Sequence record: PQ553088
From: Escherichia phage OES_C-1
Length of the DNA stretch: 64,000 bases
Direction: 5' to 3' (one strand)
Below, piece by piece: positions 4,197 to 62,865 of this stretch. Each line of letters starts with the position of its first letter. Within the stretch, counting starts at the first letter, position 1. Under the pieces are notes generated by a model. It was given only the letters and a program-made list of their open reading frames with translations, ran no database searches and was not told the DNA's origin. The position numbers were made by a program, and so were the translations under genes.

Positions 4197-5133
4197 ATTT
4201 AAATTGTTCAGTAACGTCTTCAACTACTTCGTATTGGCAGGTACGCATTTTAGCGTCGTTGTAATCAATCGGAATTGATACTACATCACGCGGATGCACT
4301 TTAACTTTTACAACTCGACTGGTTGAACTACCAAAGTGACGAATATAAGATTTAGAACACACATGCAGACCACGAGAACAAGTTTGTGTATCATCGTCAT
4401 TCACACGAGTACGCGGCATTTTAACTACTTTACCAGGACTGTTATCAAAGGTGTTTGAGTGACAGTCAAAGTAGTTGTCACGAACTACTTTCCAAGCATA
4501 GAAGTAACCATCTTCTGTAATTTCAATATCGTTTGCTACCAAGAAATCAAAGAGTCGAGATACCGCTTTTTGGCTTGGGTTTTCCAACAGATTTTCCAAG
4601 AACGGAAAATAGAATTCAAAGTTTTCGCCTTTTTCCATCGAGTCAAGAATACGATCAACCAAACCAGATCGCAATTCAATATTTTGATAGAACAAGCTTC
4701 CACCTTCAATTCGAACATCGCCGGAAATATATTTTTCAACAGCGCGACGAACATTAATTTTTTGTGCCGCTTCTTCCAACTTATCCGCTACAAGCAGATT
4801 AAGAATTTCCTGGAAGTTTGAATGAGTATTAGGAGTTGCGTTATAAGTTACACCATCAACAGTAATTGAAATGAATTTTTTAGATGCATTCCAAATAATG
4901 TCAGATTTAGCAATTGGAGCAATAACTACATCACTCTTAACTTCAACTGCAATGTCACCGCTAATGGTAACTTTGGAACGCTCAACTTCTTCAGCATTTT
5001 TCAAAACACGACGGATTGTGTCAACCGATACACCTTGCCAATCAGCCAATTCCTGTTGGGTATAATTACCACTTGAATACAGTTTAACAATTTCAGCTTG
5101 TTCGTTTTTGGTCAGGCATTTAATATTGTACAT
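4195..5133 (-). CDS. rIIB: rIIB protein (312 aa)
   Basis: MYNIKCLTKNEQAEIVKLYSSGNYTQQELADWQGVSVDTIRRVL...; adjacent to rIIA. Confidence 0.9.
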   Translation of the reverse strand: MYNIKCLTKNEQAEIVKLYSSGNYTQQELADWQGVSVDTIRRVLKNAEEVERSKVTISGDIAVEVKSDVVIAPIAKSDIIWNASKKFISITVDGVTYNATPNTHSNFQEILNLLVADKLEEAAQKINVRRAVEKYISGDVRIEGGSLFYQNIELRSGLVDRILDSMEKGENFEFYFPFLENLLENPSQKAVSRLFDFLVANDIEITEDGYFYAWKVVRDNYFDCHSNTFDNSPGKVVKMPRTRVNDDDTQTCSRGLHVCSKSYIRHFGSSTSRVVKVKVHPRDVVSIPIDYNDAKMRTCQYEVVEDVTEQFK

Positions 5134-5144
5134 AATTTTCCTTA

Positions 5145-7322
5145 TTAGGCCGCAAGGGCCTTCATAGTTTTAGCGATTTGGGAAACTTCATCATCACTTA
5201 AAGAGTTGCGATAACCGATGAAGTCGGAAACAATACGGAATTTCTTGGTAAACTCAGCAACCATTTTATCACTGTTTTTTGAAGCATTATTTGATAATAC
5301 ATCAAAAAGATTAGTTACTGTCCAGATGTCATGACCGATGGTATCTTTTCCACCGTTGAAATATACACCCTGTAATGAACTAACCATATTAGCGAGTCGT
5401 GTATATTCTTCAGAAACTTCATCTACACTGAAGTACTTCATCATAAAATCTAGTTCAGGATACTTGATAATTTTATCAATATATCGTTTAGCTGAACTTG
5501 AATAACCTACATACTTATCATAATCTACATCATCAAAAGCATCTACATATAAATCACGCAAAGTTTCAAAAATACATTGGCACTGACCAAGTTCTTTTAC
5601 CTTTTTCTGCAAAAGCGGACGAATAACATAAAATTCATTAATGCCAATAAGATTAGCCATACGAATCAAAATATTCGTAGATGGATGACAAAGCGATGTA
5701 GTACCATCCATAGAGAAAATATCAGAACGATGCATGTATGCTACATAACCAGTAATTTCATCTGCTTCTGACGTAAGTGTAAATAGTTCCTCTTTTTCCC
5801 AGCGACCGTCTTTAATTTCAAACTTAAATGCAGTAGCAGTTTTAGGACGAGGAGCTGTACTTTTTACTGCCTTCGGAATATAACTTTTAACTAAAGCTTC
5901 AATTTCTGACAGATAATGAATGTTAACTTCATCACTTTCAAACATTGCGATAATATCAGGAAGCAAATCAATCTGCGATTCTACTTCCGGATTAATAAAC
6001 AGAAGACGCTCATTGTGATGAATATTCAAAGTGTTATTAAATTCACTATCATCTAATGCACGTGCTAATCCACGGACAATATTAACACGATTTTTAATAT
6101 TATCAATGACGATATTAATTTTTGTTGTGTTAATACCAAACAGACGATAACTTGATGCAACGGCTGAAGTTTCATGACTTTGCTTAATGCGCTTCAGTCG
6201 AGGGTCAAGATTTACTTCATACACAACTCCTGCATTGCATAACTTACTATCAGGTTCAAACATGCTTTGCATCTTCTTATATGACAGATTTTTAGTCGTA
6301 AATTTGACTGAATTACTAATCATATAATCTCGAGCAGAATACCCCATCTTCATCAATTCACGATATGTATGACGGGGAGATGTGGATTCTTTAAATCGTT
6401 TTACATCTTCATTAAATGCTTTCTCACTGAGTTCTTTAACTCGTTCAATAATATTTTTACGAGTACGATCATCCAGTGAAAGAGCCTCGCGAGATGGAGC
6501 AATATCAAGTGAACCCATTGGAAACTTAATATAATTCACTTCATTGCGGATGCTTAACCAGTTACGGTCTCTAATAACACCATCAATAGGATAAACAATA
6601 CCACCATAGATAGCATACAATCCACCACGATCTGGCCAGTATCTTTCTGGATTTACGCCGTAATAATCATCAAAATCCGGAAAATAATCAATTTCGCGGT
6701 CAAGACCATTAATAATAGCCAAATCTTTGAATGGTCGCATGATATAGGAAACTTCATAAGCAAAGTTTCTAAAGTCTTTTTCTTCAACCGGAACTACGAT
6801 TTCAATGCCAGTTTTATCGTTTGGACCCATTTCTTTTACGAATGTAGGTTTAATCTGCGGACCGTCACCATCCATGTAAGCTACATAACCACGAATTTCA
6901 CCTTTATGGTACGAAGTAATACTAAATGTATCAGTATAACTAAACGGAGATTTAGAACCTAAACCAAATCCGCCAATGAAATCGTTGGATTCAGCCTTAG
7001 ATGAACTGAAGTATGAATTATATAACCCAGGAGAATTATCATCACCCTGAATATCAAAATCGCTCATACCCGGACCAAAATCTCGACAAACAAATCGCGG
7101 ATCTAATCGTCCTGGAACTTGAATGATAAATTTTTCAGGATTTCCATTGAGAGCATGGGCGTCAATCATGTTGGTAATTAATTCACGGACTACTGCACGA
7201 ATCTTGTTTGTATACAAATCAGATGACAGAATTTTAAATACTTTAGGAGATGCTGTGATGCTAAATGCTTTTGATTTAGAACCATTGCCAAGAATTGTTT
7301 CTTTTTCAGTGGTGATAATCAT
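5145..7322 (-). CDS. rIIA: rIIA protein (725 aa)
   Basis: [29 protein letters not shown]...; size and rIIB adjacency as T4. Confidence 0.9.
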
Positions 7323-7332
7323 AATTTCCTCA

Positions 7333-7536
7333 TTAATTCATATTACGCTTAATAACTTCAGCAACTTCTAGTAATTCATCTTTAGTTGCAGTGTCGGATT
7401 GAATTTTATCTCTAATATCTTTAAAGCGGTTTTTAAATTCTTCGGCTTCTCCCATATCGAAAAAGCGTTGAATGATTCTATATTCTCGATGAACTGCTTT
7501 ATCAAAAAGTTCTAAATTTACTTTATATGATTTCAT
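7333..7536 (-). CDS. hypothetical protein (67 aa; rIIA.1 position)
   Basis: Track ORF with GAGGA SD; directly downstream of early promoter. Confidence 0.5.
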
Positions 7537-7559
7537 TTCAATATCCTCATTTGCCCAAT

Positions 7560-7593
7560 TAATTATACCACATCCTTGTGGTAAAGTAAACTA
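7560..7593 (-). promoter_or_regulatory. T4-type early promoter (GTTTAC, 18 nt, TATAAT)
   Basis: gtaaac 7586-7591, attata 7562-7567; same 30-nt sequence recurs at 54343-54372. Confidence 0.65.
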
Positions 7594-9408
7594 CTGGCTC
7601 ATCCATTCTTTACGAAGGTCAGCATTATCTCCCATGAGCATTTCAAAAAGCTCTTTCCAGTTCTCAGGAAGTTTAACAACATCATATACTGGATTTTGAA
7701 TCATCTCACGATATTCAGATTTTTCCAAAGAGCCAAGTCCTTTAATATAACGGATGCTATGTTTAGGTAGAGCATCTTTGGCGCTCTCATATTCAGCGAC
7801 TGTATAAAACCATTCTTGTTTTTTACCGACCTGTGCGATGATTACAGGAGTTTTGACAAAGCGAATTCGTCCTTGCTCAAACAGTTCTGGCCAATTACTA
7901 AAAAATCCAAGCAGAGAAGGATAAATGCTTCCTAGACCATCATGGTCAGCATCAGTCATAATAGCAATATTATGATAATTCAAGTTTTCAGCTTTTTCAC
8001 CGAGAACTAATCCAGTGATTGCGCAAATATCAAACAGTTCTTTGTTTTTAAGCATGTCAGCATATGACATGCCCCAACTGTTGAGAACTTTACCGCGCAA
8101 TGGATAACCACCGTGAAGTTCTTTATCACGAACATCAATAAGATATCCGATAGCCGAATCACCCTCAGTCAAGAAAAGAGTAGTGTCAGCATCTTTACCA
8201 CAAAGATTCGCTTTAATATGTTTATGAACCTTAGCTTTAGAGGCCTTTTTAGCTGCTTTAGTTTCAGCTGCTTTTTCTGCTGCCAATTTACGAGCCAAGG
8301 CAGCTTCAATAATTGGCATTAAAATTGCTTCATTATTTAAAATAGCACGTGAAATCTTTTTAGCATCAAGCTGAATATGACTACGAATTTCACCAAATGG
8401 AGAAGTCAAACGCTCTTTAGTTTGAGAATCAAATCGCATGTTTTTCATATCACGAACAAACATAACGATAGTCAAACATTCTTTAACACGTGCTTTAGTT
8501 ACATCAATTTTGAATTTACGTTTGATTTGTGGAATAAGGTCTTCACAAATATCATCCATAACACAGTCAATGTGATGGCCACCATTCTTAGTATGAATGT
8601 TATTGACGTACGTCAATTGACGAAAACCATCCGGTGAACGACCAACCGCAATAGAACAGTTTTCTTGTTCTTGAACGATGGCGTGTTCATCATATTGGCG
8701 TGCATATTTCTTAAAATTACCCTGAACCTTTTTACCATTAAAGGTAAATTGAATATCAGGATAAACTACTGCAAGTGTCTGGAGACGATCTAGCGTAATG
8801 TCAAGATAAACTTGAGATAGCTCATTGGTTTCAAATGACATAAAATCAGGAATGAAAGTAACACGAGTTCCTTTCCATTTTCCTGGAATAGTTTCCCATG
8901 ATTTATTTTCCATGCCATTTGAACAACGAACTACAATATTATTTTGACCATCACCAGTTTCACCGACAAACATCACAGAAAAAATGTTTGTCAAACTAGA
9001 ACCAACACCATTCATACCGCCAGTGACGCGTTCTTTATCATCACCAAAGTTACCACCTGCTTTTGGAATAGTCCATGCAGCAACAGGACCAGGAATTTCT
9101 TCACCAGTAGGTGTTTTAACCATCGCCTGTGGAATACCGCGACCGTTATCTTCAACTGTTACTTGATTGTTTTTAATAGTAACATTAATTTTATTTGCGA
9201 ATTTAAACTTAGTACGAATACCTTCATCTACTGAGTTATCGATAATTTCATCAATAAGCTTAACAAGACCAGGTACATACTGAACACTTTCCCATTTACC
9301 AAACAGAAAGCGCTCATGCATTTCATTAGCGGAAGAGCCAATGTACATGCCGCTACGCTTTTTGATATGTTCAATATCGCTCAGAATTTTAATTTCATTC
9401 TTAATCAT
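7591..9408 (-). CDS. 39: DNA topoisomerase II large subunit, single continuous gene (GyrB-like ATPase plus Toprim region that is separate gene 60 in T4)
   Basis: MIKNEIKILSDIEHIKKRSGMYIGSS... through ...GLGSLEKSEYREMIQ; ~605 aa uninterrupted. Confidence 0.9.
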   Translation of the reverse strand: MIKNEIKILSDIEHIKKRSGMYIGSSANEMHERFLFGKWESVQYVPGLVKLIDEIIDNSVDEGIRTKFKFANKINVTIKNNQVTVEDNGRGIPQAMVKTPTGEEIPGPVAAWTIPKAGGNFGDDKERVTGGMNGVGSSLTNIFSVMFVGETGDGQNNIVVRCSNGMENKSWETIPGKWKGTRVTFIPDFMSFETNELSQVYLDITLDRLQTLAVVYPDIQFTFNGKKVQGNFKKYARQYDEHAIVQEQENCSIAVGRSPDGFRQLTYVNNIHTKNGGHHIDCVMDDICEDLIPQIKRKFKIDVTKARVKECLTIVMFVRDMKNMRFDSQTKERLTSPFGEIRSHIQLDAKKISRAILNNEAILMPIIEAALARKLAAEKAAETKAAKKASKAKVHKHIKANLCGKDADTTLFLTEGDSAIGYLIDVRDKELHGGYPLRGKVLNSWGMSYADMLKNKELFDICAITGLVLGEKAENLNYHNIAIMTDADHDGLGSIYPSLLGFFSNWPELFEQGRIRFVKTPVIIAQVGKKQEWFYTVAEYESAKDALPKHSIRYIKGLGSLEKSEYREMIQNPVYDVVKLPENWKELFEMLMGDNADLRKEWMSQ

Positions 9409-57756: not shown

Positions 57757-58725
57757 TTATTTCAGAAGAGTAACCTCAGCGATTTCTTGCCAACCGTTTT
57801 TGTCGGTCATAATAAAGTCAGCAAGATAAAGAGCAGTACGCAGTGAAACATTGCGTAAACGATTAACATTGACTTTCATCCATGATAATGCTTTATAAGT
57901 TTCTTCATCAGAAAGACCGCGCTTTTGCATCATGTCAGTTGAAAGAATAACATCTTCAACCCTGACCATAATTTCTTCATTAGTGTGAACACCCAAATCC
58001 AAATAAACCGAGCGGGACACTAATGCTTGTAAATGTGGAGCAAGTTTAGTACCACGGTCTAATTCGCGGTCAATGTCAACGTTTGTGATAAAAACAATCG
58101 TTCCTTTAAATTCAAACTCACGGTCAATGCCTTTTTCTTCTAAGTAAGAAGATGCAGTGCTCCAGCAGACTTTACGGGTCTCTCCAGTGTCCAGAGCAGC
58201 TTTTAGAAGATTAAGAATGTCCATATCAGAGAAAACATCCACATCATCAATCAAAAGGACAGAGTTCTCTTCACGATTATTCCAAAGCTGTTCATAAAGA
58301 CCAATACCAGAGATTTTACCATTAATGCTTTTATATTCAATGTATCCATTATCATTTGCTTTATTTAAAGCTTTATCTAAAGAATACGTTTTACCAATAC
58401 CTGCTGCGCCAGAGATAATCAATGAACGAATATTTCCATTAATAATACCATTCGTCATCATTCCCATAACATTAAATCTTTTATTAATGCGGGTTTTCAT
58501 ATCTTCATATGATTCTTTAACTTCTTCAACTTTTACACCATCATATGAAATATCTGATTTGTAAACCCAAACACCGCGACGTTTACCGTCAATTTCAACA
58601 AAAACTTTACCATCTCCTTGTGCATCTACCGGAGCATTATCTGGGAACCATTCGCCTAAGAGCTCAAAAGTTCCAGAGATTTCTTTACCGAAGTAGATAC
58701 CCTTATTGATAGTTACAGTTTTCAT
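57757..58725 (-). CDS. P-loop NTPase (Walker A GAAGIGKT, Walker B LLIDDVD), ~322 aa
   Basis: Start at internal ATG with GGAGAA SD. Confidence 0.55.
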   Translation of the reverse strand: MKTVTINKGIYFGKEISGTFELLGEWFPDNAPVDAQGDGKVFVEIDGKRRGVWVYKSDISYDGVKVEEVKESYEDMKTRINKRFNVMGMMTNGIINGNIRSLIISGAAGIGKTYSLDKALNKANDNGYIEYKSINGKISGIGLYEQLWNNREENSVLLIDDVDVFSDMDILNLLKAALDTGETRKVCWSTASSYLEEKGIDREFEFKGTIVFITNVDIDRELDRGTKLAPHLQALVSRSVYLDLGVHTNEEIMVRVEDVILSTDMMQKRGLSDEETYKALSWMKVNVNRLRNVSLRTALYLADFIMTDKNGWQEIAEVTLLK

Positions 58726-58761
58726 TTTATTCTCCAATTTCACATTTGTTTTGATAGGGTA

Positions 58762-58794: not shown

Positions 58795-59058
58795 TTATTT
58801 TAATGTTCGCCAAATTTTTACTGCTTCGCGACGAGATACTTCTACAGCTCCAAGTTCTACGGCTTTTTGGCGGCGGCGCGCGTGTAAGTCATAATGTTTA
58901 ATGCGTTTATCTTGAAACCAAGAGCGTTTCATTCCTATTGCTTCTGCCATTTCATGAAGCTCTTCAATATCTCCATCAGTGAACATATGACAATTTTTAG
59001 TTGGATGACCGCGAAGTTTCCATCCATGATTCATTAAAACATCTACGTAAACTGTCAT
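58795..59058 (-). CDS. hypothetical protein (87 aa; MTVYVDVL...ELHEMAEAIGMKRSWFQ...HYDL)
   Basis: Track ORF. Confidence 0.45.
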   Translation of the reverse strand: MTVYVDVLMNHGWKLRGHPTKNCHMFTDGDIEELHEMAEAIGMKRSWFQDKRIKHYDLHARRRQKAVELGAVEVSRREAVKIWRTLK

Positions 59059-59204
59059 TAATTCTGCTCCAAATATGTTTCTATAATTTTCTGAGCGAGA
59101 TAAACTGCATTATCTTCAGTTGCATCTTCTAAGAAATTTTCAAAACAAGCTGAAATCTCTTCTGTGTCAATCAACTTTTTTACTTCAATTAACGTAGTTT
59201 TCAT
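59058..59204 (-). CDS. small acidic protein (~48 aa)
   Basis: Start at internal ATG (MKTTLIEVKK...) downstream of cassette promoter. Confidence 0.4.
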   Translation of the reverse strand: MKTTLIEVKKLIDTEEISACFENFLEDATEDNAVYLAQKIIETYLEQN

Positions 59205-59239
59205 TTTATTCCCCCAAATCCACATCAGTTGATAGTTGT

Positions 59240-59269
59240 ATAGTACCATAAAGCTTTATGCTTGTAAAC
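59240..59269 (-). promoter_or_regulatory. T4-type early promoter (cassette family)
   Basis: gtaaac 59264-59269, atagta 59240-59245. Confidence 0.6.
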
Positions 59270-59296
59270 AACTTTGTGACGTCATTTAAACAAAAA

Positions 59297-59314
59297 GGGA
59301 GCCCGAAGGCTCCC
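59297..59314 (-). terminator. UUCG-tetraloop hairpin downstream of the nucleotidyltransferase gene
   Basis: gggagcccgaaggctccc. Confidence 0.55.
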
Positions 59315-59316
59315 TA

Positions 59317-60330
59317 TCATTTATAATAACTTCGGTGGTTTTCAAGATACACCTTCTCAAGAAAGTCATCCCAGAAACCCATGTCTACTTTTTGCTGCAT
59401 ACCGTTCTTAGAAGCTTCAATGGATGCTGCTTCTACTTGATCGACCACATCTTCCAAAAACTCTTGAACAGTTTTAAATGGATGCTTACCCAGCTTCACG
59501 TCGAGAATAAATGGAGCATCTTGGAGTGGATAAACCAAGTCACCAGTTTTGTAAATTTCCAATAGTTGAAGTCCACCACGGCAAGCATGACTTAGAGCTT
59601 TCCAATCAATGCCTTCATTCGCTTCAGCTTTACGAGCACGTTCGCCGTATTCAGCATCTAATTTATTCAGTGACTGCTTAAGCTCAATAAGAGAAAGTGT
59701 TGTCTGATATTTACGACCCAACACAGTATAGAACGTTTGTGGGCCTGTTTTCTCATGATTATGGAACACCCATTCACAGAACTCGTTTTCTGGAAGACGA
59801 TGCTTAATATCTTCAACTTTAGTGCGACGTTGCTTAATAGAACCATCTTCTTGGTAATCAACCCACTGGTCAGGGATTTGATTAACTACTTTCAATACAT
59901 CACGTAATGCAGCCAAACGAGAACCCTTGACACCATATTTAGAAGCTTGCTTGCGGACATATCCTAAATAGGATTTCATGTTAGTCGTATAAAAACGAGA
60001 ACGATTGTCTTGAATAAACTTCCATACATCAGGCAAATCAGATTTAACCACTAGCTCAGGTGGAGTGTGAAGCATATCTAATGCTACGGTTTCACCATCT
60101 GCTGCTAATTTAAAGAAATACTTAAGACTGTATAGTTCATGGTCAATATCATCTTTAGTGTTTTTAGATGATGTGTTGTTAGTGTTTTTACTCATATGCT
60201 CTTTAACATTTCCGATAAGAATATCGCGAGCAGGAGGAACAAAGATTTCTTTAAAATCTACATCAGATTCTGGAGTAGAAGTTCCATAAAGATGACTACC
60301 GAAATAGCTTTTCATTACTGTTTTCATCAT
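59317..60330 (-). CDS. Pol-beta superfamily nucleotidyltransferase-like protein (337 aa)
   Basis: N-terminal YFGSHLYGTSTPESDVDF (GS-x9-DxD) followed by DDIDHE; helical C-terminal region. Confidence 0.5.
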   Translation of the reverse strand: MMKTVMKSYFGSHLYGTSTPESDVDFKEIFVPPARDILIGNVKEHMSKNTNNTSSKNTKDDIDHELYSLKYFFKLAADGETVALDMLHTPPELVVKSDLPDVWKFIQDNRSRFYTTNMKSYLGYVRKQASKYGVKGSRLAALRDVLKVVNQIPDQWVDYQEDGSIKQRRTKVEDIKHRLPENEFCEWVFHNHEKTGPQTFYTVLGRKYQTTLSLIELKQSLNKLDAEYGERARKAEANEGIDWKALSHACRGGLQLLEIYKTGDLVYPLQDAPFILDVKLGKHPFKTVQEFLEDVVDQVEAASIEASKNGMQQKVDMGFWDDFLEKVYLENHRSYYK

Positions 60331-60788
60331 TCAGCCTTATATTCAATAACAGGACATACTTTAGCTTTACGGGCTTTTAAAAATTCGACGATAATAGATT
60401 TCTTGGGCTGAATAGGAGGTAAACCTTTATACGCCCTATCAATATTTTCTACATGTAAAGTATAATCCTTTTTCCATTTATAATCTTTATATTTTTCATG
60501 TAGTTGTGCAGGAATAACAAATGAACCAATAATAAGTAAAACAAGCAAAATAGCAAGTATAAATGCTGATGGAATAAGAGTCCATAAACTACCAAAAATA
60601 AGCCATTTCTGTATGATTTCTGCACAGATAATAGTTAGACCTGCGAGTATAGTACATCCGAAAAAAGAAACGAAAAATGTAGGGATAACAATAGACCAAA
60701 AGTATGCACACAGTGTCTTAGGTCGTTTCCATTCGTCGTTAAACAGTTTGAATAATTTATAGTGCCAAGAGTTTTCATTAATAATCAT
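60327..60788 (-). CDS. membrane protein (153 aa, ~3 predicted TM helices), translationally coupled to the nucleotidyltransferase gene
   Basis: Hydrophobic segments IVIPTFFVSFFGCTILAGLTIICA and LIPSAFILAILLVLLIIGSFVIP; 4-nt overlap. Confidence 0.5.
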   Translation of the reverse strand: MIINENSWHYKLFKLFNDEWKRPKTLCAYFWSIVIPTFFVSFFGCTILAGLTIICAEIIQKWLIFGSLWTLIPSAFILAILLVLLIIGSFVIPAQLHEKYKDYKWKKDYTLHVENIDRAYKGLPPIQPKKSIIVEFLKARKAKVCPVIEYKAE

Positions 60789-60790
60789 AA

Positions 60791-61312
60791 TTATCCTTTC
60801 ATTGAAGGTGTAACAGTTGTTAAATACTTAATCATAGCTTCAGCTTCTGATTTTGATAATGAAATTTCTTCATTGTTTTGACGAATAGAAATAAAATCCG
60901 GATGACGGTCACCACCAGCTTTTAAAACACACATATAAGTATCAGTTTCATCTTCAATATTTGAAATGATTGAAGCAGTTCCACATGAATGTGGTTTTTG
61001 ATAAATCAATACAGCTTTTCTTCCGCCGTTTGACTGTTCATAAACTTTTAACACATCAAACAAATCACTTCTTTTATCAATAGCTAAGATGTTGTTTTCA
61101 TCTTCAATGTTAAATCCTTCGGATACTTCATAAAGTGTCACCCATAAATCACCTATATCAATAGTAGCATTTTCCTTTCCATGACTTTCAAGAGCGTGAC
61201 AAATTTTCTTGATTTCGTCATAACTCATTTTAATAATATCATCTCCTTGAATAAGGAAGATGTCATTTTTAAATTCAACACGAATTAAACCGCTTCCACT
61301 TGAAATAAACAT
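60791..61312 (-). CDS. hypothetical protein (173 aa); paralog of next ORF
   Basis: C-terminus SKSEAEAMIKYLTTVTPSM vs TKDEAIALKTYLDSVIPTM. Confidence 0.5.
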   Translation of the reverse strand: MFISSGSGLIRVEFKNDIFLIQGDDIIKMSYDEIKKICHALESHGKENATIDIGDLWVTLYEVSEGFNIEDENNILAIDKRSDLFDVLKVYEQSNGGRKAVLIYQKPHSCGTASIISNIEDETDTYMCVLKAGGDRHPDFISIRQNNEEISLSKSEAEAMIKYLTTVTPSMKG

Positions 61313-61318
61313 ATTTCC

Positions 61319-61876
61319 TCACTTTGAAATCATAGTTGGAATGACAGAATCAAGATAAGTCTTTAGCGCAATAGCTTCGTCTTTGGTAAATGTGACAATA
61401 TGTGATCGAAAATCGTCAATTTGACGAATAGTTAAGACATCTCCTTCTTCATAACATTTTGATACATTTAAAACAGTTTCATCATTCTGATTGCAAGCGT
61501 TAGTAATAATAGCATTGCAATTTTTGAGCCATTTTAAACCATGTTTTCTTTCATTAGAATAATAAAAATATTTAATCTTAGCTATAAAATTATCCCAATT
61601 ATTAATTGATAAACACATTGACTCACTTTTAATATTAAATCCTGGGCATGAAGAATAAAAATGAATTTTGTGCTCATCATTGATGCTTACTATTTTATCA
61701 GTATAAGGATATTCAATTTGGGTTAAATGAATGATTTCACTAGGCGTAAAATACAGCATATCGTCTTCTTGCGTCAAACGATACATATTATTTACTTTTT
61801 CTATAGCTAATTCACCAAAAAGCGGACTAACTTCTAATACTAATCGTTTCATATTGATTCTCTTCGACTCACTCAC
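61319..61876 (-). CDS. hypothetical protein (185 aa); paralog of previous ORF
   Basis: Track ORF. Confidence 0.5.
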   Translation of the reverse strand: MSESKRINMKRLVLEVSPLFGELAIEKVNNMYRLTQEDDMLYFTPSEIIHLTQIEYPYTDKIVSINDEHKIHFYSSCPGFNIKSESMCLSINNWDNFIAKIKYFYYSNERKHGLKWLKNCNAIITNACNQNDETVLNVSKCYEEGDVLTIRQIDDFRSHIVTFTKDEAIALKTYLDSVIPTMISK

Positions 61877-62011
61877 AATTACATACTCCTTTGAATAATA
61901 TCAATAATGTTGTTCACCAGATTATAAGTAAACATTGGGTAATTATATTGAATCATCACATACACAACAAACAAAACTTTCATTCTCTTCTCCTTGGCAG
62001 TTGACAAGATT

Positions 62012-62041
62012 ACTATACCATAACCTTGCCAACTTGTAAAC
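62012..62041 (-). promoter_or_regulatory. T4-type early promoter
   Basis: gtaaac 62036-62041, actata 62012-62017. Confidence 0.55.
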
Positions 62042-62819: not shown

Positions 62820-62832
62820 ATTGAAAGTAAAC
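62803..62832 (-). promoter_or_regulatory. T4-type early promoter
   Basis: gtaaac 62827-62832, atagta 62803-62808. Confidence 0.55.
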
Positions 62833-62847
62833 TGGTAAAATGAAAAA

Positions 62848-62865
62848 AGTCTCCCGAAGGAGACT
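62848..62865 (-). terminator. UUCG-tetraloop hairpin
   Basis: agtctcccgaaggagact. Confidence 0.55.

Follow-up and report, generated by a model that had tools for sequence, protein, structure and literature searches.

In 2006 the orthologues of gene nrdC.11 of bacteriophage T4 were found to match COG3541, a nucleotidyltransferase domain (PMC1524935). A preprint by Carruthers, Fatma and Huang (bioRxiv, December 2025) assigns the T4 protein to cluster 5 of a similarity network of PF10127, the RlaP family (PMC12776372). In this report we describe the nrdC.11 gene of Escherichia phage OES_C-1, which lies within a 64,000-nucleotide stretch of sequence record PQ553088 (hereafter the window), together with the gene immediately upstream, which specifies a 153-amino acid membrane protein. 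An initial annotation, prepared from the DNA sequence alone, had treated the two products as a nucleotidyltransferase coupled to a membrane partner. NrdC.11 itself is already known, being a long-annotated T4 gene product that belongs to a described family and for which a functional hypothesis is in print. What is new here is that the long, NrdC.11-type form of RlaP is itself encoded within Hen1-Pnkp and RtcB operons of bacteria, where a canonical RlaP gene usually accompanies it in tandem, and that the apparent membrane partner of NrdC.11 is incidental.

The closest characterised enzymes are two RlaPs from Pseudomonas. These add one or two nucleoside monophosphates (NMPs), or the corresponding deoxynucleotides (dNMPs), to the 3'-OH of RNA with a preference for Mn2+; they are inactive on DNA and protein, and no labelling of E. 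coli protein or DNA was seen (PMC12776372). With all four nucleoside triphosphates (NTPs) they label full-length tRNA-sized and rRNA-sized species. On a cleaved-tRNA mimic RlaP acts on the 3' end of the 5' half in preference to the acceptor 3' end, and a repaired tRNA without one anticodon-loop nucleotide regains part of its aminoacylation when RlaP is applied beforehand (PMC12776372). In a survey of jumbo phages Iyer et al. (2021) described RlaP as the most prevalent template-independent nucleotidyltransferase of these viruses, with a distribution which mirrors that of the RNA ligases, and predicted that it restores the nucleotides lost to RloC-like enzymes before ligation. The nucleotide-restoration hypothesis is also put forward by Burroughs and Aravind (as cited in PMC12776372) and by Carruthers et al. 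(2025).

NrdC.11 as a long-form RlaP

NrdC.11 of phage OES_C-1 belongs to the RlaP (PF10127) branch of the Pol-beta nucleotidyltransferases and, within that branch, to a long form. The protein has 337 amino acids if counted from the first ATG and 336 from the second (60327), the latter being the start annotated in most database entries. An AAGG Shine-Dalgarno sequence precedes the second ATG by 7 nt and the first by 4 nt, the second having the better spacing. The protein is 97.6% identical over 100% coverage to T4 NrdC.11 (NP_049709, T4p095), which is annotated in RefSeq as "nucleotidyltransferase", and its conserved position between mobD.1 and nrdC.10 is shared with T4, which places it in the T4 NrdC.11 orthologous group. 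A match to PF10127 ("RNA repair pathway DNA polymerase beta family") extends over residues 7-135 with a score of 43.7 bits (E=3.6e-11), the curated Pfam gathering cutoff being 23 bits, and the PHROGs family phrog_388 ("nucleotidyltransferase") is matched at E=7e-137. PF10127 is likewise present, as precomputed annotation, on all of the 120 close homologues among the matches listed.

In all, 3417 representatives of 50%-identity clusters match at E≤1e-3; at the stricter limit of E≤1e-30 there are 828. Nearly all are full length (310-350 amino acids). NrdC.11 occurs in 1513 phage records as a conserved early gene of the T-even phages. A contig search with the single OES_C-1 protein returned one locus, on a phage-like contig of a metagenome-assembled genome. 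Many of the homologues deposited in GenBank and UniRef are named "thioredoxin", and one "HNH homing endonuclease". These names look like errors spread from the nrdC name or from the neighbouring mobD gene.

The catalytic motif of NrdC.11 consists of G11-S12, a 10-residue spacer, D23-V24-D25 and D60-D61-I62-D63-H64-E65. The GS, DxD and DDIDHE elements had been recognized correctly in the initial annotation, in which the spacer was put at nine residues. In an alignment of 101 homologue representatives (34-54% identity) residues G11, S12, S22, D23, D25, N57, Y132, R231, K244, H248, R251, P268 and K279 are invariant, D61 and D63 are at least 90% conserved, and the catalytic residues stay conserved after the addition of bacterial homologues. 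Judged from these aligned sequences, the conservation of the catalytic residues is far beyond chance, and the GS and DxD residues on which the original call had been staked (G11, S12, D23 and D25) are among the invariant ones.

The AlphaFold2 (AF2) model derived from the same alignment has a predicted local distance difference test score (pLDDT) of 94.8 and a predicted TM-score (pTM) of 0.85. It contains an N-terminal alpha/beta nucleotidyltransferase domain and a helical C-terminal domain with a terminal helix, the latter interrupted by a beta-rich insert of ca. 60 amino acids (ca. 152-211; strands at 155-159, 165-169, 185-192, 196-203 and 206-209). Neither the insert alone nor the C-terminal 126 amino acids alone gave a significant Pfam match. 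The match covers positions 23-142 of the RlaP profile and is extended to only 23-174 in a construct from which the insert had been deleted. Taken together, the above-cutoff PF10127 match, the predicted fold and the conserved catalytic residues bear out the initial call of a Pol-beta/minimal nucleotidyltransferase; "RlaP-like", one of several options then listed, is the one which agrees with the profile score, the fold and the bacterial RNA-repair operons described below.

Foldseek comparison with the NrdC.11 model gave weak nucleotidyltransferase matches only. Among the PDB structures searched, from which the crystal structure of P. fluorescens RlaP described in PMC12776372 was apparently absent, none is close. 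The nearest is HalB of the Hailong system (PDB 9dbh/9dbj), which at 15% identity has no detectable sequence or profile match to NrdC.11, and sequence searches of PDB chains with NrdC.11 and with its family profile found no nucleotidyltransferase. HalB is a protein of 217 amino acids which makes protein-primed oligo-dA. Kanamycin nucleotidyltransferase/ANT(4') and the nucleotidyltransferase-like protein 3c18 show 8-11% identity, have small-molecule substrates and belong to other Pfam families. Terminal uridylyltransferases (TUTase/Cid1) are, among the matches listed, distant structural matches only, with a probability of ≤0.12.

The RlaPs of Pseudomonas fluorescens and P. aeruginosa share with NrdC.11 the PF10127 domain and the GS...DxD...D set of residues and, as far as the AF2 model shows, the combination of an N-terminal nucleotidyltransferase domain with a C-terminal helical one. 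An RNA-repair gene context is seen for these enzymes and for some of the bacterial homologues of NrdC.11. The phage protein differs in being ca. 80 amino acids longer, in possessing the beta-rich insert and in its network cluster (5 versus 1a), and the phage gene is not located beside an RNA ligase gene.

The remaining families put forward in the initial annotation did not hold up, with no above-threshold match in Pfam, NCBIfam or PADLOC. This applies to the cGAS/DncV-like nucleotidyltransferases (CD-NTases) of the cyclic oligonucleotide-based antiphage signalling systems (CBASS). For the minimal nucleotidyltransferase (MNT) antitoxins the MntA model of NCBIfam scored 13.2 bits against a cutoff of 60 and PF01909 13.9 bits against 21, and no HEPN gene is adjacent. 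No CCA-adding enzyme or poly(A) polymerase family of Pfam was matched at E≤0.1, and the structural matches listed contained no such enzyme apart from the distant TUTase/Cid1 ones.

RNA-repair gene context and proposed role

A tblastn search of plasmids revealed an Asticcacaulis protein of 327 amino acids which aligns with NrdC.11 over 328 residues, including the insert, at 35% identity (E=7e-62). In this operon Hen1-Pnkp is followed after 8 nt by the NrdC.11-type gene and then directly by a canonical RlaP (269 amino acids; PF10127, 236 bits). A Deferribacter homologue of 338 amino acids is encoded on the same strand as RtcB and 2.5 kb further downstream; since its match spans positions 2-246 of the PF10127 profile, it bridges the long and canonical forms of RlaP. 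The plasmid contexts in Rhizobium and Curtobacterium were uninformative with respect to RNA repair, with ArgRS and HipA in one and a methyltransferase-helicase fusion in the other.

The Asticcacaulis protein headed the alignment with which metagenome contigs, many of them short, were scanned, and 80 loci (L097-L176) were obtained. A canonical RlaP is found immediately downstream in 25 of these (20 of the 52 loci with at least 0.9 kb of downstream sequence). Pnkp and/or Hen1 are present in nine loci and RtcB in four, such that 13 of the 80 contain Pnkp, Hen1 or RtcB. The Pfam domains recorded among 149 neighbouring ORFs (open reading frames) include RlaP (18), RtcB (3), PNKP_ligase (2), TROVE/Ro60 (2) and Hen1 (1), the RtcB count being level with those of the Response_reg, LysR-family and HD_4 domains. 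The association of the long form with RNA-repair genes is substantial but partial.

The tandem itself, in which a long NrdC.11-type nucleotidyltransferase of ca. 320 amino acids precedes a canonical RlaP of ca. 250-270 amino acids (e.g. positions 6001-7790 of locus L088), sometimes occurs inside Hen1-Pnkp/RtcB operons, and hints at distinct but cooperating roles for the two forms. Jumbo phages, among them phiKZ and CcrColossus, also have canonical RlaPs. None was found in the T-even phages, which carry only the long form.

Other contexts were noted among distant phages. In KVP40-like and other viruses (loci L059-L062, L068-L069 and others) the NrdC.11 homologue is situated among genes of NAD salvage and Nudix genes (NAMPT, NMNAT-like CTP_transf_like and NUDIX), and not near RNA ligases. 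Only small phage ORFs were seen around three distant phage-type representatives (P0260, P0240 and P0222).

We consider it probable (roughly 0.6) that NrdC.11 is an RlaP-type RNA 3'-OH nucleotidyltransferase which serves in RNA repair and counter-defence. The enzyme would be expressed early, from a promoter at 62041. Its two-metal site, formed by G11-S12, D23-x-D25 and D63, would add one or a few nucleotides in a template-free manner to the 3'-OH of damaged RNA, while the basic residues R231, K244, H248, R251 and K279 of the helical domain may bind NTP and RNA. The main substrate that we infer is the 5' half of a tRNA which has been cut and trimmed by a host anticodon nuclease. The phage Pnkp and Rnl1/Rnl2, which are 3'-OH/5'-P enzymes encoded elsewhere in T-even genomes, could afterwards join the fragments into a tRNA of proper length. 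A 3'-OH product would fit the T4-type ligases, and would avoid the RtcB compatibility problem raised in PMC12776372. As such, NrdC.11 would be an accessory to RNA repair and counter-defence which is dispensable in the laboratory; the T4 segment nrdC.11-mobD.3 can be deleted.

If NrdC.11 does restore the nucleotides removed by anticodon nucleases, it would complete the classic T4 Pnkp/Rnl1 tRNA-repair counter-defence, and would also explain how phages might cope with RloC-type enzymes. On this reading the stand-alone long-form RlaP might restore the nucleotides excised by RloC-type anticodon nucleases, and would supply the step which T4 Pnkp/Rnl1 need in order to defeat "smart" ribotoxins; this has already been proposed in print. 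The NrdC.11 locus does not represent a new kind of system.

A number of points weigh against an RNA-repair enzyme. The addition of NMPs to RNA 3'-OH ends has been shown only for the Pseudomonas enzymes, the activity of NrdC.11 being predicted from sequence. The PF10127 match is restricted to residues 7-135; the C-terminal half diverges from the canonical RlaPs, which lack the ca. 60-amino acid insert, and as a consequence the substrate specificity may differ from theirs. The closest solved structure found, HalB, is that of a DNA-synthesising enzyme. No RNA ligase or Pnkp gene is located near nrdC.11 in the window or near its homologues in 35 distant phage loci, and only about one-fifth of the longer bacterial loci have Pnkp, Hen1 or RtcB. 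Lastly, the long form usually lies beside a canonical RlaP in bacteria, which suggests that the two are not equivalent, and the T-even phages are without the canonical form. We regard the diverged C-terminal half, the insert and the retention of both forms side by side in bacteria as the main caveats.

One unlikely variant of the RNA-repair explanation is that NrdC.11 acts upon the 3' ends of tRNAs or of phage or host mRNAs, either restoring CCA or adding short tails which alter stability. T-even phages encode tRNAs and are not known to carry a CCA-adding enzyme. The location of nrdC.11 within an early transcription unit would also suit such a role, as would the ability of the characterised RlaPs to label full-length tRNA-sized and rRNA-sized RNA with all four NTPs. 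This proposal is countered by the lack of a Pfam match to the CCA-adding/poly(A) polymerase families, by the preference of RlaP for the 5'-half 3' end of the cleaved-tRNA mimic over its acceptor end, and by the ties of the bacterial homologues to the end-healing and sealing enzymes Pnkp, Hen1 and RtcB.

It is less probable still that the enzyme nucleotidylates a protein, as in MNT-like AMPylation of a host HEPN RNase toxin, or a small molecule in the manner of the ANT/KNTase enzymes. This idea derives only from generic similarity of fold and from the weak NCBIfam match to MntA (E=0.06), the score of which is far under its cutoff. RlaP is the sole family past a curated threshold, its characterised members label neither E. 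coli protein nor DNA, and the genes which accompany the homologues are those of RNA repair rather than of toxin-antitoxin systems.

The transcription unit and the upstream membrane protein gene

The window consists of DNA of a T-even phage (Tequatrovirus; T2/T4-like). Between 59000 and 61400 its DNA matches that of Escherichia phages OES_C-2 and OES_C-3 with 100% identity, and that of hundreds of T2/T4-like phages with ca. 96%. The features of the nrdC.11 transcription unit and of its borders, with the basis of each assignment in parentheses, are as follows:

59240..59269 (-), early promoter GTTTAC ... TGGTACTAT of the following cassette, just beyond the terminator (consensus match)
59296..59315 (-), intrinsic terminator: an 8-bp G+C-rich stem, a UUCG tetraloop, then UUUUUGUUU (folding)
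59317..60330 (-), nrdC.11, RlaP-family (PF10127) nucleotidyltransferase (T4 identity, Pfam, phrog_388, AF2 and conservation)
60327..60788 (-), RB32ORF096c-like gene for a small inner-membrane protein of 153 amino acids, phrog_944 (ORF, PHROGs, hydropathy and AF2)
60791..61312 (-), RB32ORF097c, 173 amino acids, a mobD.1 paralogue (y05I-like) (ORF, Pfam and PHROGs)
61319..61876 (-), mobD.1, y05I-like, PF24449 + PF24448 (Pfam and T4 synteny)
61879..61983 (-), mobD.2-like ORF of 34 amino acids, first gene of the operon (sequence reading and comparison with T4 mobD.2)
62012..62041 (-), T4-type early promoter GTTTAC-N-TGGTATAGT, ahead of mobD.2 (consensus match)

On the strand of nrdC.11, T4-type early promoters (GTTTAC ... 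TGGTAnnnT) are located at 62832, 62041 and 59269; that at 62012-62041 has an annotated early-promoter analogue in Mosigvirus SA79RD. The gap between RB32ORF097c and the 153-amino acid ORF is 2 nt and contains no early, middle or late T4 consensus site. Because the nearest upstream early promoter sits three genes further up, the 153-amino acid gene and nrdC.11 form the tail of a five-gene early operon. Most likely the promoter at 62041 drives the whole unit, mobD.2-mobD.1-097c-096c-nrdC.11, which is ended by the UUCG terminator. The mobD.2-like ORF agrees in size (105 nt) and position with T4 mobD.2. The terminator hairpin, AGGGAGCC-UUCG-GGCUCCCU and a U-tract, begins right after the nrdC.11 stop codon (59315-59296 (-)) with a folding free energy of -19 kcal/mol (z = -5.1 against shuffles), and in phage D5505 the equivalent site carries a terminator annotation. 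Of the two borders that had been drawn around the gene pair, the UUCG hairpin therefore stands, and the promoter does not, the nearest upstream one being at 62041-62012. The promoter at 59269 is that of the cassette further downstream, which is made up of a 63-amino acid ORF, a DUF4031 ORF and nrdC.10.

The 153-amino acid protein is RB32ORF096c, a member of phrog_944 ("membrane protein" in PHROGs). Its hydropathy profile displays two long hydrophobic blocks, at 25-56 and 62-97, between lysine/arginine-rich tails. The AF2 model (pLDDT 82.9), for which the alignment held database proteins only, has a helical hairpin (26-64 and 68-120) and a small beta-sheet formed by an N-terminal (2-4) and a C-terminal (149-151) strand. 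According to these predictions the protein is a hairpin of two transmembrane helices with conserved cytoplasmic N- and C-tails, and not a protein with about three such helices as was first supposed. In the tails H9, C27, Y29 and C145 are invariant and S7, W8 and L26 nearly so; K143 is invariant only in the 41-sequence alignment of the phrog_944 family. The paired tails with H9, C27 and C145 could, if the model is right, provide a metal-binding knuckle on the hairpin. Neither PDB profile searches nor Foldseek gave a match to HalA or to anything else. Shorter versions of phrog_944, 99-135 amino acids in length, occur in several phages including T2. A holin-type function was considered and rejected.

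The initial annotation noted correctly that the stop of this gene overlaps the start of nrdC.11 by 4 nt. The 153-amino acid ORF ends GAA-TGA, giving an overlap of 4 nt (ATGA) with the first ATG of nrdC.11 and of 1 nt with the second. When the genes of the window are modelled crudely, overlaps of 4 nt are seen in 15 of the 110 pairs of same-strand neighbours, and overlaps of 1 nt in six others. The ATGA junction is ordinary T4 gene packing, the two genes being co-transcribed and translationally abutted as are many genes of T4.

We surveyed the neighbourhoods of 78 IMG/VR loci which encode relatives of NrdC.11 (40-99% identity). A member of the membrane protein family directly abuts the nucleotidyltransferase gene in 11 of these, in each case with at least 76% nucleotidyltransferase identity. 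In 32 it lies ca. 0.35-2.5 kb upstream with other genes between, and in 35 there is no membrane-family gene within 5 kb. The gene directly upstream overlaps the nucleotidyltransferase start by 4 nt in 38 of the 78 loci; across the relatives it belongs to more than 30 unrelated clusters, among them y05I-like, ProQ-C-like, HNH endonuclease, HD-domain and P-loop kinase-like proteins. The contigs of three distant family members were examined, and on two of them no RlaP gene lies within 5 kb of the membrane gene.

T4 itself shares with OES_C-1 the flanking synteny (mobD.1 ... nrdC.11 ... nrdC.10) and the orientation of the genes. It differs in that mobD, a free-standing HNH homing endonuclease gene, occupies the slot upstream of nrdC.11 in place of RB32ORF097c and the 153-amino acid gene, both of which are absent, and in that no 63-amino acid or DUF4031 ORF is found downstream. 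The published mobD insertion site in T4 is nrdC.11/mobD.1. Because adjacency is confined to close relatives, T4 is without the membrane gene, the upstream clusters are unrelated to one another and two of the three distant family members examined have no RlaP gene nearby, the idea of a functional nucleotidyltransferase-membrane partner module is unsupported. The 153-amino acid protein is an independent and often replaced neighbour in a hyperplastic early region, outside the mechanism of the enzyme.

The same observations make it very improbable that the two genes constitute a nucleotide-signal module, be it a CBASS-like synthase-effector pair, a Hailong-like pair in which an oligonucleotide is sensed by a membrane channel and gates it, or an anti-Hailong decoy which protects against such a channel. 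The HalB structural match with a membrane neighbour, the order membrane protein-nucleotidyltransferase with its 4-nt overlap, and a ligand or metal site that the invariant H9, C27 and C145 could form in the tails paired by AF2 would be in keeping with a module of this kind; against these stand a pairing that is not conserved, the commonness of 4-nt overlaps in this genome, the lack of a HalA match by profile or Foldseek, and PADLOC, which reported nothing for NrdC.11, the membrane protein, NrdC.10, 097c or DUF4031.

A different gene overlaps that of the nucleotidyltransferase in KP15/CfP1-like phages of Klebsiella and Citrobacter (ca. 4576-5007 of loci L044, L046, L050, L052, L056 and L064). 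Its product has a phage ProQ C-terminal-like domain (PF24203), a relative of an RNA-chaperone domain.

Other features of the region

mobD.1 and RB32ORF097c are tandem y05I-like paralogues (PF24449 + PF24448) of a putative transcription factor family, of which T4 keeps only mobD.1. A second UUCG terminator, AGUCUCC-UUCG-GGAGACU with a U-run, is present after rI.-1 at 62848-62865 (-), and is followed by the early promoter at 62832. The arrangement of a terminator and then a promoter is thus seen twice, at 62848-62865/62832 and at 59315/59269.

The 63-amino acid ORF and the 87-amino acid DUF4031 ORF (58795-59249 (-)) overlap by 1 nt and lie, with their own promoter at 59269, between nrdC.11 and nrdC.10. 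They were found in only 7-8 of 79 related loci, in varying positions. NrdC.10 (57757-58743 (-); 328 amino acids) has weak P-loop/STAND-like NTPase matches in Pfam (nSTAND3, AAA_16 and AAA_22), all of them sub-threshold, and its gene is located downstream of nrdC.11 in 34 of the 79 related loci.

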